Shown piece after piece: positions 36,001 through 42,000 of a DNA stretch of 64,000 nucleotides. Position 1 is the first letter of the stretch, and every line of letters begins with the position of its first letter. A program made the position numbers. The stretch lies in the NCBI GenBank assembly GCA_046052125.1, contig JBJOMY010000001.1, forward strand, positions 640,001 to 704,000. The letters run 5' to 3'. This stretch comes from Cyanobacteriota bacterium. Lineage in GTDB: Bacteria; Cyanobacteriota; Cyanobacteriia; PCC-6307; Cyanobiaceae.

Positions 36001-39000
36001 GATCAGGGCATCGCGGCGCATGGCTTCTTCCAGCTGCTGCAGGTAGGCCCGGTGCTCCGCCAGCGACCGCGCTTCTATTTCGACCCACTGGAACTTGGCT
36101 CCCTCGGGCAGGTCCATGAAAGAGGAGGTAGAGAGCACCAGCCGCTGCGGACGCTGGCCTTCTGCACCGCTGCTTGCAGCAGAGCCCAGGGCGCCGTCGC
36201 TGCGGCGGAAGCCGTAGGCGTCCACCAGGCCGGTGCGGACTCCAACCGGCAGAGCGGTGCGAGAGAGGAGGTCTTCGTATTCGCTGCGGCAGCGGTAGTG
36301 GTTGAGGTACTGGTGCGCCAGACCCAGGTGAGGGAGATCGCCCTTGCCAAAGGCAGTGCCATCTACCGAGTACCAGAGGGCCGGCAGGTCAAAGCGCTGG
36401 GGCAGCAGCGAAGGCTCGCCCACCGGCACCACGTCGTAGCCATCGGGGGCAGCCGGGTTGGGGCTGGCCTGCCAGCTGCGGAGCACCAGGCCTTCATCCG
36501 TCACAGAGAGGCTGCGGTAGAGCCAGGCCGCAGGGTCCGGCACCAGGCCGCCATGGGCATCGATCACCACCGTGGGCACGGCGGCATTGCCACTGGAGAA
36601 GCGGGGCGGCAGGGCCTGCCGGCGGGGTTCCCTCCAGGCGATCTCCACGGGCCCTGACGCCGGTGCAGCCGTGGCGGCATCGGTGGGCAGGCGCCAGTTG
36701 AGCAGGTCACCACGAGGCACCAGCTGCAGGCGGGGCAGCGAGAGGCGGTCTCCCTTGGCGAGAGCCTCCAGCCGGTCGCCTTCCGAGGGCCAGCGGTGCT
36801 GGGGCGGCAGCTGCAGGATCAGGCAGCCGCCATCTCGCAGGGTGAGCAGGTCGGCCAGGAACAGGAACACCCCCAGGTCGGTGCCCTGGCCGTCCACATC
36901 GGTGGCAATCCGACTCAGGGAGTCGGGCAGCTGCTGCCAGGCCAGCCGGGACAGCATGCCGGCGTAGGTGCGGAGGGCATCGCGGTAGAAGCCGGAGGGA
37001 CGGGCGGCCTCCAGGCGCTTGAGATAGGAGGTCTCAGGCTCCTCAATGCCCCGGGGCAAGTAGACCGGGCGGCGGCTGGTGCCGTCTGGGAGCTCCAGCA
37101 GGGTCCAGCAGTCGTAGACCAGCTGCAGGCGCTCCCGCAGGCCGGAGAGGGTGGGGTGTTCCAGCCAGGGGGGATCAGCAGAGGCTTGGGGCTGCGTCTT
37201 GGGTAGGGAAGTGGAGCTGCTGGTGGTGGCTGCTGTCCTGCGTCGGTGGGGTGCGGTCACTGCCTGCTGTTTGTGGCCAATGCTCTTGCCAGGGGGAGGG
37301 AAATGATGGCAATGACAAACCATGCAGGATGGGTATGCTTTGTAATGAGTCTCAGCTCAATTCAGGACACACAGTCGGGAGCCCATTGGATTCACATTAA
37401 ATACCCCTCCCAAGAACCCGACGGAATGAAATCTTAATCCCATCCTTCATAACGCCAATCACGATCAGCCAATGAACACTGCAAGCTTAGACTCTTATGT
37501 GGAATACAGAAGGTCTTACAGCCTGGCTGCGCAGAGATTATTCAGGTTGATCTGGAGGATGTAATATTCACAAAGGGTTTTTCAGATGCTGGCACTCGCG
37601 ACGAGGAGCACAAGACTATGCTGAACCTACAACAACAGCGAGTCTACGATTGGCTCAACAACGAGCTTGAACTCCCGGTTTTTGCCGAAGCCTATAAAGG
37701 CGCTGCGACTTTCGTGGAACAGAAACCCTCAGGCTATATTTCATTTGTAGCCCATGCTGGCAGGGACTTGATGAATTGTCTTGCATCAACTGTTGCAAAC
37801 ATCAAGTCGAGTCGCGTGCAATACCAACAACACATTGACGAGTTGCAGTCTCACTGGCGAGAAGAGTGGCGACTAAGCAATGAGCTCTCCCCAGATACAG
37901 CCGAGGGAGGATACCTAATACCCATTTTTATATGCAAAAAGATCTCTACCCTGATTGACGATCATAAATCAGGCCGCGTGAGAAGCGCGGATGCCGATGG
38001 CTTGTTCTTTAGCACATTTCTTGATTACTCAGATAAAGAAAAAATCCCAAAGAACTTCGTTTTAGAATGGAAACGCGCAAAAGAGTGGTTTCTTGGACAT
38101 GTTCATCTTCGTGGCAAACCATTCGACAAAGGCGCCGACGATGCCCTGAAAATACATTTCAAATGTCTGGAAAGCTATCTCTACATAGCCGCTAGCAGCC
38201 AGTATGACAGACTGAGGAAACTGAATGAAATCCTGGAAGCAACCAACTGATGAGATGGTAGAAAAAGTGCTATCATCTGTCAAGAAAGAGACAGATCGAA
38301 AGTACTTCTTCTCCAAGTTGACCAACCCAATGTGGGTAGGACCGCTGCGCGAACGCGGCTTCTTCAGCCACCCTCCCAGCTTGAGACAATTGCCTGATGG
38401 ATATGTGCAATACCCGCATTGGCCAGAGCTAAGTTACCTGGTTGGCATTGCACAGGATGCACCGGATCAAGTAGTTGAGATTATTCTGTCACTTCCCAAA
38501 ACAGACAACCCACGAGTTTACGAAGATATCCTTGAGGCAGCCATTAGACTAAGAGGGAGAAAATCGGCGGAGTTGCTTCCCAAGATTCGCGAATATATAG
38601 CACTTGACAATCTCGTCAATGCCAACAATTTCCCTGAGTTGATAATACACTGGACGAGCCAGGGAAATATTGATGAAGCACTAGAGGTCACTCGACTGGT
38701 CATTCCCTTTCGGGAAGACTCAAGGATGCGAGAGAAGCAGGAACTCCGTAGAATGAATCCAAACTCATTAGATACTTCGCTAAACCCGACACCTTGTTTT
38801 CGCACATGGGAATACCAGAAGATTCTGGACAGTGGAGTTCGCTACCTTTCTGAGCATGAGCCTTTTAAAACTTCGCTCGTGCTGATTGATGCAGTTACTA
38901 GTATGATTAAACTTGGATTTCATCAGGATGATCTTGACCGAAAGGGCGATCAAGACTATTCAGAGATCTGGTGCCGGAGACTAGACAAGCCGGATGAAGA

Positions 39001-42000
39001 GGTTCAGGACGAGAAAGAGATCCTCGTCCACGCGCTCACGAATGCCTGCAAGGAAGTCTATAACAATGACAAAGAGGTTATTAGTGATCTAGATCAGGAA
39101 TTGCGGTATCCTCGCTGGAGGATCTTCAAACGGATTCGACAGCATCTCTACTCATCGAACCCAAATGACCAAACCCTTCCATGGATACGCGAAGAGATAC
39201 TCGATCATGAAGAATATTCCAAGTATGAACATCACTATGAATTTCAATTAATGATCCGCAAGGCCAGCGAGCACTTCGGCCATGCTTTGCTCAGTGAAAG
39301 TGAACTGAGAGGCATTGTCAATGCGATTATGCGTGGCCCTTCGCAGGATGAATTCCGTGAGTGGATGGGCGATGAATACAGCGAGGCAGTGTTTCGGCAA
39401 CGCAAGAGCTACTTTCATAGAATTCAGCTACGCCCATTTGCTGCGATTTTAACCAAAGAAGCCCAACAGTATTATGAGGAGCTGGAATGCGATGCCTCGA
39501 CTCAAGCCATAACCGATGAATGCTATTCACCATACGGCGAGGTGGTCAGTGGAACGATCAGCTACCGGAGTCCGAGATCCGCTGAAGACCTAGCAAATAT
39601 CACCGACGAAGAACTTATTACCTATATAAACGACTGGGAAGAAGAGTATCGGGATAAGGAGAATTGGCTCGTGGAGATTAACGTGTCAGCGCTGGCCGAA
39701 GCATTTCGGTCAGTGTTTAAAGAGAGAATAGTTCTAGATGCCGATCGCCTAGATTTTTGGCTTGCAAATCGTGACAGGATTGCCAGGCCAATTTATATCA
39801 CGGCCATGCTCAAGACCATGGTTGATCTCGTCAGCGAGATGAATTATTCTAATCTCCTCCGGTGGATTGAGTTTTGTGTGTGGGTCCTCACGCATCCAGA
39901 CACACCGAAAGTAGAAGGTCAGCCTGAGCCGAGAGACGGATCATCCAGCCATCCAGACTGGGCCAATTCACGCCGGACCGTGGTTGATTTTGTTAATGCC
40001 TGCGTGAGCCAAGATGCGGATGTGCCAATTGAAGTAAGAGACAGTCTTGGTAATCTCATTCGGCAAGCCTGCGTTCAGCCTGACTGGCGGCTAGATAACG
40101 ACCGCTTAGTACTTTTAGGGAGCGATGATCCAATTACTGAGGCTATCAATAATACTCGAAGTCGAGCACTTGAATCCCTTGTCAGCTTTGGCATCTGGAT
40201 TCGTCGTCATTTGCCAGAAGACCGACTTCCAGAGGTGACCGAGACGCTTTCTCACCGTCTGGCTCTGAATCCTGACCTCCCACTAACAAGACCTGAGCAC
40301 GCGCTGCTAGGTATGCATTTTGGAAATCTCTTGTCACTCAATCATGAATGGGCTATCCGCGAAAGGAAGCTCTTTTTTCCGGAGGCTTGTGAAGCGACAT
40401 GGTGGTGTGCATTTGGCTCCTTTATCCGCTTCAACCGTCCGAGCGTATCCACGTTTAACACCATGAGGAGCGAGTTTGAATATGCAATAGGCAGCATAGA
40501 AACTTTAATAAGCAGAAAAAATCATGGCGAGTCGCTCGTTGATCGACTAGGCGAGCACCTTTTCGTTTACTACTTGTGGGGACTTTATCCTCTAACTGGC
40601 AATGAGAGCCTACTTGCGCGCTTTTATGAAAAAAACAATGACTATAGACAAAGGTGGGGGAAGCTTTTCGACTACGTTGGGCGTTCACTGGCAAACAGCG
40701 ACAGCCAATTCGACAAAGCGCTTGTCGACCGCATTATCGCCTTTTTTGATTGGCGTTGGGATGCTGCTGAACCGTTAGAGCTTCGGGAATTTACCTTTTG
40801 GCTTGAAGCCGAATGCCTCGATCCCAACTGGCGTTTGCAATCGTACTCACGAATTCTCGATATTTGCTGTTCAAAGGATGTTGCACTCTCGATTCAGGTT
40901 AATGCCTTAAACAAGCTTCATCAAGATCACCTCGCATTAGTTCTAGAGTGCTTTGCTAAAATCGCGTTTGATCAAGATACTCAGTTGTTTGTTTCAGTCG
41001 ACGAGGCTAGGCCCATCTTGAAGGCCGGTCTGGCTGCTGAAGAACCACAGATCCGTGCAAATGCTGAGCAAGCCCGCGACAAGCTATTGCGAATCGGTCG
41101 CTTTGATTTTTTGGACCTTGGATGAGAATCGGAAGCAAACTCTACGTGTTAGCTCAGGATTTGCTCTTGCCTAGGCTCGGGGGCGAAGCACATAGCACCT
41201 ATGAAAATCCATAAATGAGCTTACCTGCTTTTACGCCAAACGTCATCCTCTGTGGTTTCTCCCAGGAAATAGAGCTAAGGTCAGATGTTAGAGGATGTCA
41301 GATCAGTCGACAAGGAAACTACACGCATGGAGCACGCCTCGACAATTTGATGCCAATGCCTACTATTTATTCCCAAGCGATCCAGCATCTCGCCGACGCC
41401 AACTCCTAAGGTCAGCAACCGTTGCCCCTGCGCATGAATCTCCCGCCACGTCGGCGGCACTTTCAGCAGGAACCCGCTGTCCCGCAGAAAGTGGGTTATC
41501 TCCCCATTGGCATAGGTGCGCCCGTAGGGCCGAAAGGGACCCCGTGAGGGGTCATACCGCCGCGCCGCCTTGATCAGCCCGATCATCGCCAGCTGCAGCA
41601 GATCCTCTTTGGGATGAACGGTACGCCTGGCGAAGTTGCCGGCAATCTTCTCCGCCAGATCCATATGCTCCAGCGCCAGGGCATCGGCAGCGGCATGGGG
41701 CCGTACGGGTCGTTGACGCCGCGGCCGGCAGCGTGAAGCCTGTCGGGCCGAAGCCCTTGGCGGATGACGAGCAGGCTCCGCCCAGTTGATCTCCAGCTGC
41801 CCCGCTCGCGCACAACAGGCGGGCCGGCGGTAGGGGCGTTGCCGCAGCATTCGAGCTGCACCGGCGGGGGTCCCCACCAGCACGACCGTGATCGGCAGTG
41901 ACAGCTGCAGCACCGCCGGCTGGCCAGCTACAAGCTCGAGAACCTTTGGTGGCAGCAGATCAGGGGCTTCCATCAGTGCAGCCGCCATCGCCTTCTCTCC

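Follow-up and report, generated by a model that had tools for sequence, protein, structure and literature searches.

A swappable, defence-enriched cargo slot flanked by sigma-factor and portal genes in picocyanobacterial prophage-like elements, with a putative two-gene Dsr1-like system as cargo

Dsr1, or defence-associated sirtuin 1, reportedly goes back to Gao et al. 2020. The system is also treated in a preprint by Garb et al. (10.1101/2021.12.14.472415), and passages and legends of a 2026 Nature paper (PMC13581612) describe the sensor of Avs7 as common to Dsr1 and a protein with a HEPN-like domain. In that account, sensors of the Dsr1/Avs7 family bind the major capsid protein (MCP) of infecting phages, and phage MCP activates SeAvs7 and EcDsr1. 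The paper lists 9,097 proteins, describes the Dsr1-type sensor as joined to many alternative N-terminal effectors, including a HEPN-like RNase in a Streptomyces protein, and states that split proteins were analysed together with their neighbours. Defence genes also collect in hotspots, one of which is described in P2 between gpA and gpQ, adjoining the portal gene, with a median length of 3.2 kb (2022, PMC9122126).

The window analysed here is a 64,000-nt stretch of a cyanobacterial genome, and it contains one (element A) of two prophage-like elements whose family resides in freshwater and brackish picocyanobacteria (Cyanobium, Synechococcus and Vulcanococcus), often in several copies per genome. 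Elements of this family encode a primase, helicase, large terminase, sigma factor, portal, scaffold and capsid. In element A, the large terminase gene (42005..43903, minus strand; phrog_38 terminase large subunit, 2.6e-75; Terminase_6C) lies directly upstream of a small sigma-factor gene, P0004 (41281..41988, minus strand; Sigma70_r2, E 1.5e-11; phrog_351 sigma factor, 3.4e-17), which together with the portal gene, P0003 (35683..37323, minus strand; DUF4055, 2.2e-9; phrog_145 portal, 4.1e-18; 89-94% identity in 11 IMG/VR loci), anchors a low-GC insert, the cargo slot, at 37342..41296. The insert has 47% GC against 69% for the element (0.45-0.49 over 37.5-41 kb, 0.68-0.70 on either flank), and it coincides with a zero-coverage run, as blastn with 91 related loci gave no HSPs within 37342-41296. 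Homology to most close relatives ends at 41297-41317, within the last ~12 codons of the sigma gene, and restarts at 37292-37341, the portal start. The first-pass annotation had placed the slot at 37261..41280 (contig positions 677261-681280); the analysis confirms the slot and its sharp boundaries, but that start falls ~60 nt inside the portal gene. A search for direct or inverted repeats bounding the slot returned only matches of chance size.

The 91 related loci compare with 27 in the first-pass annotation, where sigma and portal genes were said to flank every slot. The order is indeed constant (sigma, slot, portal in 70 of 70), but only 70 of the 91 loci carry both anchors. In seventeen of the remaining 21 the upstream sequence is shorter than 5.1 kb, and in four a full 10 kb upstream yielded no sigma or terL gene; low-GC DNA stretches over 5-10 kb in L086 and L088, which have neither gene within 10 kb, and no sigma gene is present in the full 10 kb upstream in L029 and L079. 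Two of the 70 slots, of 60 and 157 bp, carry no cargo, and 68 are occupied by foreign DNA with lengths of 1-5 kb (median 2.1 kb) and a median GC of 0.50 against 0.685 in the flanks (below 0.56 in 60 of the 68). Their 158 ORFs fall into 133 families and make up 63 distinct cargo sets, antisense orientation holds for 105 of the 141 ORFs retained, and cargo is common to only 3 of 69 locus pairs whose portal DNA is 90-97% identical. The slot lies between two conserved late genes, and turnover of its content far outpaces divergence of the flanks; the earlier description of the sigma-portal stretch as a swappable cargo slot in both elements stands. Exchange probably proceeds by homologous recombination within the conserved genes on either side (sigma/terminase and portal), which we infer, no site-specific repeats having been found.

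By analogy, the slot would be a new hotspot of an already known kind. Like the P2 and P4 hotspots, as far as their published description was drawn on here, it is a kilobase-scale (1-5 kb) high-turnover locus with a conserved phage gene on each side and a wealth of anti-phage systems, both known and unknown, and like that of P2 it abuts the portal gene, although its median length is 2.1 rather than 3.2 kb. It differs from them in host phylum (picocyanobacteria) and element family, in its sigma and portal anchors inside the packaging/head block, and in cargo that is ~20 points lower in GC and mostly antisense.

Defence genes are enriched in the slots. PADLOC matches at E<=1e-8 were obtained for 28 of 147 slot ORFs and 4 of 148 non-slot control ORFs from the same loci, and at E<=1e-5 for 32 of 147 and 4 of 148 (Fisher p 2e-7), an enrichment of about ten-fold that is inflated because control ORFs are shorter (median 164 versus 255 aa) and, in high-GC DNA, include spurious ones, and that comes from slots which are not independent, their bearers being kin. 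The contrast previously given as 21/54 against 3/64 ORFs persists, with the new figures, in a three-fold larger sample; many slots again have a match at E<=1e-8, but their share is 28 of 68 occupied slots rather than 17 of 27. The strong matches include LmuA and LmuB (Lamassu, three loci), HEC-04 (4e-212), Orf5/HEC-06 (2e-234), RexA (1e-46) and dGTPase (3e-78), and two of the 28 are generic domains (mad2 methyltransferase, mad3 ABC ATPase). These data support the sigma-portal slot as a swappable cargo site enriched in anti-phage genes.

Element B is laid out in the same way (terL, sigma, antisense cargo gene, portal); GC is 0.51 in its slot and 0.63-0.68 in the surrounding DNA. Its cargo is a single gene encoding 581 aa, and the PADLOC matches reported for it, AriA at 4.7e-24 and Old at 1.1e-20, were reproduced exactly. 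Its predicted N-terminal ABC-type ATPase resembles OLD and PARIS AriA in matching the AriA, NsnB and Old models (1e-20 to 5e-24), with Pfam matches to AAA_21 and AAA_15. Unlike OLD, it shows no Toprim domain, its C-terminal 271 residues giving no Pfam match, and unlike PARIS, its single-gene slot shows no AriB-like partner. The label OLD/AriA-family ATPase thus suits the ATPase part of the protein, from which it derives, and not the rest.

The slot of element A holds two plus-strand genes. The larger, P0002 (38225..41125), encodes a 966-aa alpha-solenoid protein and putative sensor, for which the PADLOC Dsr1 match (PDLC04166, E 7.7e-19) came out exactly as first reported; it covers only positions 542-1063 of the 1227 in the model, and Pfam and PADLOC profile searches again found no SIR2 domain. 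Comparison of the P0002 family with canonical Dsr1 by hhalign aligned residues 8-959 with 302-1274 (Prob 82.5%, E 1e-5; reversed control 0.1%). Although the homology is remote (18-20% identity), P0002 is collinear, judging from this alignment, with the whole post-SIR2 part of canonical Dsr1, and a full-length 1274-aa Dsr1 (PADLOC E 0) occupies the same slot in the relative L087. The AF2 model is all-alpha (pLDDT 83.8) with HEAT/ARM-like matches. At least 666 homologues occur across phyla, over which the family is patchily spread at 53-79% identity.

The smaller gene, P0001 (37618..38250), encodes a 210-aa protein that we predict to be a nuclease and the putative effector half of the system. 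It has no match in Pfam (even at E<=1), PHROG or PADLOC, yet the earlier statement that this partner lacks a family does not hold: a search at E<=1e-3 gathers 314 representatives, among them fusions of ~1180 aa, and P0001 matches N-domains of the pP_pnuc_1 type (PF18165, "predicted pPIWI-associating nuclease") by hhalign over its full length (Prob 87.7%, E 3.4e-6; PIN N-domains, 0.3%). PF18165 clusters account for 24 of the 30 named hits in the ESM Atlas, and the nearest named clusters carry PF18165. P0001 is like pP_pnuc_1 by profile-profile match and unlike it in lacking a direct Pfam match. Its AF2 model is all-helical (pLDDT 94.3), and HEPN-type chains make up 11 of the top 17 structural matches, at Z scores of 6-7.4 that are ordinary for helical bundles. 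Unlike HEPN domains, P0001 lacks a conserved Rx4-6H motif (H72 is kept in only 12 of 83 sequences); its conserved polar set is H46, R49, N53, H116 and H163, kept in 72-83 of the 83. On sequence and model, P0001 is best described as a distant pP_pnuc_1-like, HEPN-like helical predicted nuclease.

Several observations link the two genes. They form a two-gene operon in which P0002 starts 26 nt before P0001 ends. Among 71 metagenome loci with a P0002 N-terminus, a standalone P0001-like gene is present in 41, in most cases with this 26-nt overlap, and in one the module is fused to the body. In the others the N-terminal module is replaced by PIN_12 (17 loci, 16 fused) or pP_pnuc_1 (10 loci, 9 fused), apart from one locus without a module and one too short for assignment. 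P0162, a 1188-aa protein, joins a P0001-like domain (residues 5-194) to a P0002-like body (206-1188; 40% identical), and a P0001-like gene is retained even beside relatives only 22-25% identical to P0002. From these sequences, P0001 is predicted to serve as the effector part of a Dsr1-like protein that has been split in two. Prediction of the P0001-P0002 complex weakly supports the pairing: it scored 0.40 (best of three controls, 0.00). Of 157 solved complexes, 116 attain that mark, as do 2 of 215 mismatched pairs; only 18 of the 157, but both passing mismatches, attain it with a score of 0.60 or under. Runs agreed in at least 49% of contacts, with partner pLDDT of at least 71. The family also keeps defence-island company, as 46 of 142 neighbouring ORFs match PADLOC at E<=1e-8 (type I RM, AbiE, AbiG, PtuA, GajA, PDC-S05, Dsr1), often inside type I RM operons.

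We consider it probable, taking the explanation as a whole, that the slot is a variable site for cargo that mostly serves anti-phage defence and would protect both lysogen and element, and that here it holds a putative two-gene Dsr1-like system, a capsid-sensing nuclease. Because Dsr1/Avs7 sensors recognise phage MCP in the published account, capsid sensing that activates a nuclease is the likely mechanism, the likeness of P0002 to this sensor family being drawn through Dsr1, the sole member compared. Capsid protein of an incoming phage would bind P0002; the P0001-P0002 complex would be activated, probably through oligomerisation; P0001 would cleave RNA or DNA; and phage replication would halt, possibly at a cost to the cell. 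P0001, translationally coupled to P0002, would stand in for the SIR2 NADase. The system thus differs from Dsr1 in having two genes instead of one and a predicted nuclease as effector, and since it lacks SIR2, NAD depletion is not expected. In the passages and legends of PMC13581612 consulted here, we found no mention of the two-gene form with its 26-nt overlap or of the PIN_12 and pP_pnuc_1 variants.

The slot could instead be a general accessory-gene ("moron") site that tolerates horizontally acquired DNA, with defence genes as frequent passengers under no special selection. Forty of the 68 occupied slots have no PADLOC match at E<=1e-8, the cargo includes a methyltransferase and, clearly unrelated to defence, IS transposases (L026, L041, L100), GNAT, GTP cyclohydrolase II, DUF1214/1254 and ABC-transporter-like genes, and further low-GC islands occur elsewhere in the elements, all of which speak for such a site. 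Against it stands the ten-fold enrichment over non-slot ORFs, and many PADLOC-negative genes have defence-type domains (HEPN_RiboL-PSP, ApeA, the Lit-like type, Mrr_cat, PIN+HTH), and DUF3800, Peptidase_U49, YaaC and DO-GTPase1 are also found among them. Two of the four control matches (L017, a low-GC ORF, and L083) lie 7.5-9.8 kb past the portal, where extra islands occur, which suggests that cargo as a whole favours defence genes, and we regard the moron site as improbable. An assembly chimera, or a single recent insertion confined to the source genome, is a very improbable origin of the insert: no contig of the searched runs was found to bridge a slot junction with >=31 letters on both sides, but this arrangement is found again in element B and in 68 loci that were assembled independently and stem from isolates, MAGs and viral contigs, and exact pieces of the element A cargo are present in lake metagenomes of other studies.

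Another improbable reading is that P0001-P0002 is not anti-phage but a toxin-antitoxin-like addiction module, or a cellular protein that merely shares the Dsr1 solenoid scaffold. Alpha-solenoids are generic scaffolds, P0001 has no recognised catalytic motif, and an anti-phage role is a prediction by remote homology to Dsr1. Against this reading stand the collinearity over the full post-SIR2 part and the low score of the reversed control, the interchange of three nuclease-type domains as N-terminal modules, a pattern familiar from defence proteins, the known defence genes among the neighbours, and the patchy spread across phyla. We therefore favour the Dsr1-like defence system.

In two lake DNA runs, the flanks of the element A slot are 50-100 times deeper than the cargo. 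Exact pieces of P0002 occur in two metatranscriptome runs from different studies (five and one), where the flanks are almost absent; these pieces are contigs, and RNA libraries can contain DNA.

Farther along element A lies its MCP gene (25345..26283, minus strand; phrog_212 major head protein, 4.9e-54; Pfam GP7). The element thus encodes a capsid protein of its own, and a sensor of MCP would need to leave it unrecognised, a point against MCP sensing. Close by, a second low-GC cargo island (26945..29370; GC 0.48-0.52) is also nearly unaligned to relatives, so the sigma-portal slot is not, as had been stated, the only part that never aligns. The island contains a gene for a 184-aa protein without assigned family (28406-28960) and a 209-aa DUF6338 gene (27659-28288), which shares 72.8% DNA identity with a gene carried between sigma and portal in L074, as slot cargo.

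Element A, the prophage-like element of the window (20.8-55 kb), lies in a genome of 2.64 Mb with a GC content of 64-66%. Read along the minus strand, its gene order runs from a helicase gene (47713-49107, plus strand) through genes encoding a primase (44678-47446), the large terminase (42005-43903) and a small sigma factor of which region 2 alone is recognisable (41281-41988) to those encoding the portal (35683-37323), a 165-aa ORF, a LysM protein and a scaffold protein (32962-33930), with the major capsid protein gene (25345-26283) farther along. Between the sigma and portal genes, on the strand opposite the structural genes, lie P0001 (37618-38250), encoding a 210-aa putative effector, and P0002 (38225-41125), encoding a 966-aa putative sensor body; the two genes overlap by 26 nt. 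GC content drops from 0.68-0.70 to 0.45-0.49 between ~37.3 and ~41.3 kb of the window. Sequence homology to most close relatives stops at 41297-41317, within the last dozen codons of the sigma gene, and restarts at the start of the portal gene (37292-37341), and no blastn HSP from any of 91 related loci fell inside 37342-41296.

These 91 loci comprised 11 from IMG/VR (portals 89-94% identical) and the best 80 of 137 confirmed hits in species-representative genomes; one further locus, L020, was left out, its portal match being 32% identical over 79 residues. By label they belong mostly to Cyanobium, Synechococcus, Vulcanococcus and picocyanobacteria, with a few labelled otherwise (e.g. Bradyrhizobium, Microcystis), and single genomes often carry several such loci. 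Sigma and portal genes were both present on 70 of the 91, invariably in the order sigma-slot-portal on one strand, and 68 occupied slots held 63 distinct cargo sets, which bears out the first-pass annotation's description of a swappable cargo slot at this position. Of the 21 remaining loci, 17 have under 5.1 kb of sequence on the upstream side of the portal gene and four have the full 10 kb: L086 and L088 contain low-GC DNA for 5-10 kb upstream of the portal, and L029 and L079 contain ~1 kb of lower-GC DNA followed by high-GC DNA without a sigma or terminase gene. Slots are between 60 bp and 7.5 kb long, with a median of 2.1 kb, and their median GC content is 0.50 versus 0.685 in the flanks, with values below 0.56 in 60 of the 68 occupied slots. 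Two slots are effectively empty, with 60 bp (L071:9904-9965) and 157 bp (L070:974-1132) between the sigma and portal matches, and give an unoccupied junction for comparison.

The 158 slot ORFs of at least 80 aa fell into 133 families (30% identity, 60% coverage). Seventeen short (<130 aa), high-GC ORFs, mostly adjoining the portal gene, were dropped as probable shadow ORFs, and 105 of the 141 retained are antisense. Cargo was held in common by all four locus pairs whose portal genes are at least 99% identical in DNA and by three of the 69 pairs at 90-97%, and a tblastn search of the relatives (E<=1e-8) found no match to P0001, P0002 or the cargo of element B, the second such element of this genome. 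A repeat search found the cargo of element A flanked by neither direct nor inverted repeats, and we therefore did not adopt a site-specific insertion mechanism. Together with the homology breaks at the end of the sigma gene and the start of the portal gene, this suggests that cargo is exchanged by homologous recombination in the conserved flanks. The 64-kb window contains no tRNA genes. A scan of 37200-41450 yielded nine promoter-like sites (5.0 +/- 1.6 expected) and seven terminator-like sites (3.7 +/- 2.2 expected), both close to chance, and no convincing promoter upstream of P0001 or terminator downstream of P0002.

Two loci deserve separate mention. Upstream of the intact portal gene of L086, by ~2 kb and within low-GC DNA, lies a duplicate fragment of the portal N-terminus (L086:7570-8007) that may be a recombination scar at the slot border. 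L036 and L037 are two apparently identical element regions on one contig, ~56 kb apart, with 100% identical portal genes, equal coordinates and ORF sets, and an identical four-gene cargo that includes a DO-GTPase1 protein.

To compare the defence content of slots with that of their surroundings, we ran PADLOC on 146 slot ORFs, non-redundant at 90%, together with the cargo of element B, and on 148 control families drawn from the 458 into which 1057 identically called non-slot ORFs of the same loci were grouped. At E<=1e-5, 32 of the 147 slot ORFs and 4 of the 148 controls matched (Fisher p = 2e-7), a comparison in which the loci are kin to one another and the control ORFs are shorter and in part spurious in high-GC DNA; at E<=1e-8 the count was 28 of 147 slot ORFs (p = 3e-6 versus controls), two PADLOC matches being to generic domains and the ATPase models being promiscuous. 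These data support the earlier interpretation of the slot as an anti-phage defence hotspot. At the stricter threshold, matches occurred in 28 of the 68 occupied slots of the relatives and in both slots of this genome.

The systems matched by PADLOC include LmuA+LmuB (L016, L041, L030), a full-length, 1274-aa Dsr1 (defence-associated sirtuin 1; L087, E 0), HEC-04 (L083), Orf5/HEC-06 (L010, L075), AriA-like ATPases (L072, L085), RexA (L101), dGTPase (L055), an Aga-type REase (L050), a TIR-like effector (L073) and the candidate systems PDC-S11, S13, S14, S15, S31, S33, S49, S59 and PDC-M63A. Among the systems that the first-pass annotation had listed, IetA/IetS and PDC-M01B were absent from the 70 slots, and PDC-M01A appeared solely as a secondary match of L085. 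Pfam, run on 102 proteins of which 99 were relatives' slot ORFs, for the most part without a PADLOC match, added HEPN_RiboL-PSP in the slots of four loci, ApeA, DUF3800, a DUF676 hydrolase, Peptidase_U49 (Lit-like), YaaC, DO-GTPase1, Mrr_cat, a HATPase_c_3 protein, PIN_3 with an HTH and a 1014-aa RelA_SpoT protein. Cargo of non-defence types was found by the same means: IS transposases, an ABC-transporter-like gene, GTP cyclohydrolase II, GNAT and DUF1214/1254. Forty of the 68 occupied slots held no known defence match and so offer dozens of candidate new systems, and the sigma and portal anchors provide a search handle for such systems that is usable even on short metagenome contigs.

Prophages P2 and P4 carry hotspots of this kind, and the slot of P2 likewise adjoins the portal gene, as set out in the part of PMC9122126 drawn on here. 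The sigma-portal slot agrees with prophage-encoded defence hotspots as understood by Rousset et al. (2022) in being a short locus between two conserved genes, in how readily its gene content changes between close relatives and in its enrichment in known defence systems; it is a hotspot of an already known kind. Our literature search turned up no published account of this slot in cyanobacteria, nor of the elements themselves.

In element A the slot holds the P0001-P0002 pair. No Pfam (E<=0.1) or PHROG family was found on P0002, and PADLOC matched it to one Dsr1 model (E 7.7e-19) over model positions 542-1063 only. Alignment of the P0002 family with a profile of 80 canonical Dsr1 proteins (hhalign) gave a probability of 82.5% (E 1e-5, 811 columns), pairing P0002 8-959 with Dsr1 302-1274; the reversed control gave 0.1%, and the single-sequence version of the test 45.7%. 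The AF2 model of P0002 (pLDDT 83.8) is an all-alpha solenoid. Foldseek matched it at low TM to generic solenoids of the HEAT/ARM type; Avs4 ranked 39th, and the top 50 included neither Dsr nor Avs7. A PDB sequence search with the P0002 profile gave no hits. Homologues of P0002 number at least 666 and are 53-79% identical among the 120 listed, with hosts that include Nitrosomonas, Nitrincola, Desulfomicrobium and Verrucomicrobiota. Twenty-eight of these 120 are longer, at ~1195 aa, and their extra N-terminal ~230 residues comprise PIN_12 in 22 and a pP_pnuc_1-type domain in six.

P0001 likewise matched no Pfam family, and PF18165 was unmatched even at E<=1. Two fused relatives, P0113 (29.1 bits) and P0123 (31.5 bits), pass the Pfam cut-off for PF18165 of 26.3 bits, and two others, P0071 and P0094, miss it. 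By hhalign, P0001 aligned with the pP_pnuc_1-type N-terminal domains at a probability of 87.7% (E 3.4e-6, 187 columns; PIN control 0.3%), and in the ESM Atlas PF18165 clusters made up 24 of the 30 named hits (score 0.90). P0001 had no significant BLASTP match to the fused forms, to which it is linked by profile methods only. The AF2 model of P0001 (pLDDT 94.3) has seven helices, and HEPN-type chains were 11 of its top 17 structure matches (VIA), at rmsd 3.1-4.5 A over 96-125 residues and at Z 6.1-7.4, which is below the level distinctive for helical bundles. Foldseek gave no match to the model at E<=0.001, and a PDB sequence search with the P0001 profile gave nothing useful (six hits at E 0.17-0.67). 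Conserved residues are H46, R49, D/E50, N53, H116 and H163. A conserved Rx4-6H HEPN motif is absent, the sole such pattern being R66-H72, with R66 in 44 and H72 in 12 of 83 sequences. The invariant C-terminal residues may result in part from double coding with the start of P0002, since the two genes overlap. At E<=1e-3, a library of 1.84 billion yielded 314 representatives related to P0001, mostly of 205-245 aa, with four of ~1180 aa. In the literature we found no defence paper on pPIWI-associating nuclease or DUF4935.

In the fused relative P0162, residues 5-194 form a P0001-like domain, and the body after it shares 40% identity with P0002 across 984 columns. Among 71 metagenome loci in which the N-terminus of a P0002 relative is present, 41 had a P0001-like gene standing separately upstream, mostly ending 25 nt past the P0002 start, as in element A, and one had a P0001-like module fused to the body. 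PIN_12 was found in 17 (16 fused) and pP_pnuc_1 in 10 (nine fused); one locus had nothing recognisable and one was too short to tell. The P0001-like partner was retained with P0002 relatives only 22-25% identical. Together, the fusions and the retained partner mark P0001-P0002 as an 'effector + body' protein in split form, of a kind whose N-terminal module is interchangeable. Complex prediction with P0001 and residues 1-780 of P0002 lent weak support to the pair: the score was 0.40, a mark that 116 of 157 solved complexes attained, as did 2 of 215 mismatches, with scores at 0.60 or under including only 18 of the 157 solved complexes and both passing mismatches. The best of three controls scored 0.00; at least 49% of contacts agreed between runs, and the partner pLDDT was at least 71.

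Dsr1 acts by NAD depletion via its SIR2 domain, according to the portion of 10.1101/2021.12.14.472415 used here. P0002 resembles Dsr1 in having a homologous post-SIR2 (middle and C-terminal sensor) region, but it lacks an N-terminal SIR2, canonical Dsr1 relatives carrying PF13289, and the system is encoded by two overlapping genes rather than as a single polypeptide. Because SIR2 is absent, NAD depletion by P0001-P0002 would not be expected. The cargo system is a split, SIR2-less Dsr1 relative with a poorly characterised putative nuclease module. In the passages of PMC13581612 (2026) that concern it, the Dsr1 sensor is common to the STAND protein Avs7 and a HEPN-like-domain protein, the Dsr1/Avs7 sensor is joined to many effectors, and the activator of SeAvs7 and EcDsr1 is the phage major capsid protein. 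As far as those passages go, P0001-P0002 is a variant of the architecture just outlined in print, its likeness to the Avs7/Dsr1 capsid sensors running through Dsr1, the one member compared, at moderate probability.

On the basis of the homology to Dsr1, we propose that P0002 would sense a phage capsid protein and that capsid-bound P0002 would switch on the predicted nuclease P0001. The homology itself, the fusion and coupling of the two modules and their genomic context are direct observations; binding, the trigger, the substrate and the outcome we infer. Element A encodes its own capsid protein, and P0002, if it is a capsid sensor, must therefore tell a foreign capsid from its own. As the cargo of element A shows, the Dsr1 sensor is a module, joined to SIR2, PIN_12 or pP_pnuc_1 or accompanied by a separate P0001-type protein, and such modularity allows tests of how a single capsid sensor acts on different effectors and of whether an effector can be activated in trans.

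Picocyanobacteria are major freshwater primary producers, and to our knowledge their defence systems are poorly charted. The slot might be the main immune-gene exchange point of freshwater picocyanobacteria, with most of the 40 slots without a match encoding undescribed defence systems and P0001-P0002 forming a new two-component receptor in which a Dsr1/Avs7-type capsid sensor switches on, in trans, a nuclease from a HEPN-like/pP_pnuc_1 family not characterised before; we offer this combined proposal tentatively, and think it somewhat likelier to fail in some part than to hold as a whole.

The company kept by P0002 relatives on metagenome contigs was sampled through 150 of 201 non-redundant neighbouring ORFs of at least 120 aa. 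Of 142 scanned, 46 had a PADLOC match at E<=1e-8, to type I RM subunits, AbiE, AbiG, PtuA-like and GajA ATPases, a Dsr1, PDC-S01, S05 and S23, and type IIG, III and IV restriction enzymes. The slot sequence of element A itself is present in lake metagenomes of several studies. In two of these, summed contig depth was 150-690 for the flanks versus 1-6.5, at exact identity, for the cargo, and two metatranscriptome libraries from different studies held exact pieces of P0002 (five and one, respectively) and the flanks as divergent scraps only. No metagenome or metatranscriptome contig aligned to the slot bridged a slot junction. The depths and the content of the RNA libraries, which come from contigs only and in which DNA carry-over is possible, are what would be expected if a rare cargo, carried by a common element, were expressed when the structural genes are quiet.

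The elements occur in multiple copies, with two in this genome, at least four loci in one Synechococcus isolate and at least five in another. None of the scanned ORFs of element A (20800-55000) was recognisable as a tail, integrase or small-terminase gene, and the elements could be satellites, domesticated elements that form capsids, or complete podovirus-like prophages whose tail genes escape recognition. Element B (L023 = C3:55001-75000) has the same layout, with terL, sigma, one antisense gene encoding 581 aa, and portal, and its slot has a GC content of 0.51. An ABC-type ATPase part is present in its cargo protein (OLD/AriA matches); the C-terminal 271 aa had no Pfam match, so no Toprim was seen, and the slot, being a single gene, holds no AriB-like partner. 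Directly after the portal gene of element B (L023:12500-13474, E 3e-26), and likewise in L075 (3956-4930, E 6e-26), a 324-aa antisense ORF matches the candidate defence family PDC-S44; it may mark another cargo position of B-type elements or be a shadow ORF in high-GC DNA.

Element A is bordered by further defence genes. A complete class 1 DISARM operon (4495-20714) comprises DrmD (4495-7824), DrmMI (7824-11777), DrmA (14363-17980), DrmB (17980-19902) and DrmC (19902-20714). A low-GC insert between DrmMI and DrmA contains a 187-aa ORF (11784-12347) and a HEC-05-like gene encoding 575 aa (12630-14357), which looks like a defence gene nested within a defence operon. On the other side, a type III restriction-modification pair (region 56829-63996; Res 56829-59810, Mod 59818-61692) is followed by a 251-aa ORF and a Snf2/HKD-type helicase gene that runs off the end of the window. 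Element A therefore lies within a chromosomal defence island.

Within element A, a second low-GC island (26945-29370) contains a DUF6338 gene (27659-28288) and a gene encoding a 184-aa unknown protein. This DUF6338 gene shares 72.8% DNA identity with a gene carried in the sigma-portal slot of L074; cargo thus moves from one slot to another. Similar additional islands occur 3-11 kb beyond the portal gene in many (roughly half) of 43 profiled loci. Two of the four PADLOC matches among the control ORFs, a ThsA-like SIR2 encoded by a low-GC ORF in L017 and DrmC in L083, are located 7.5-9.8 kb past the portal gene, within the range of these islands.
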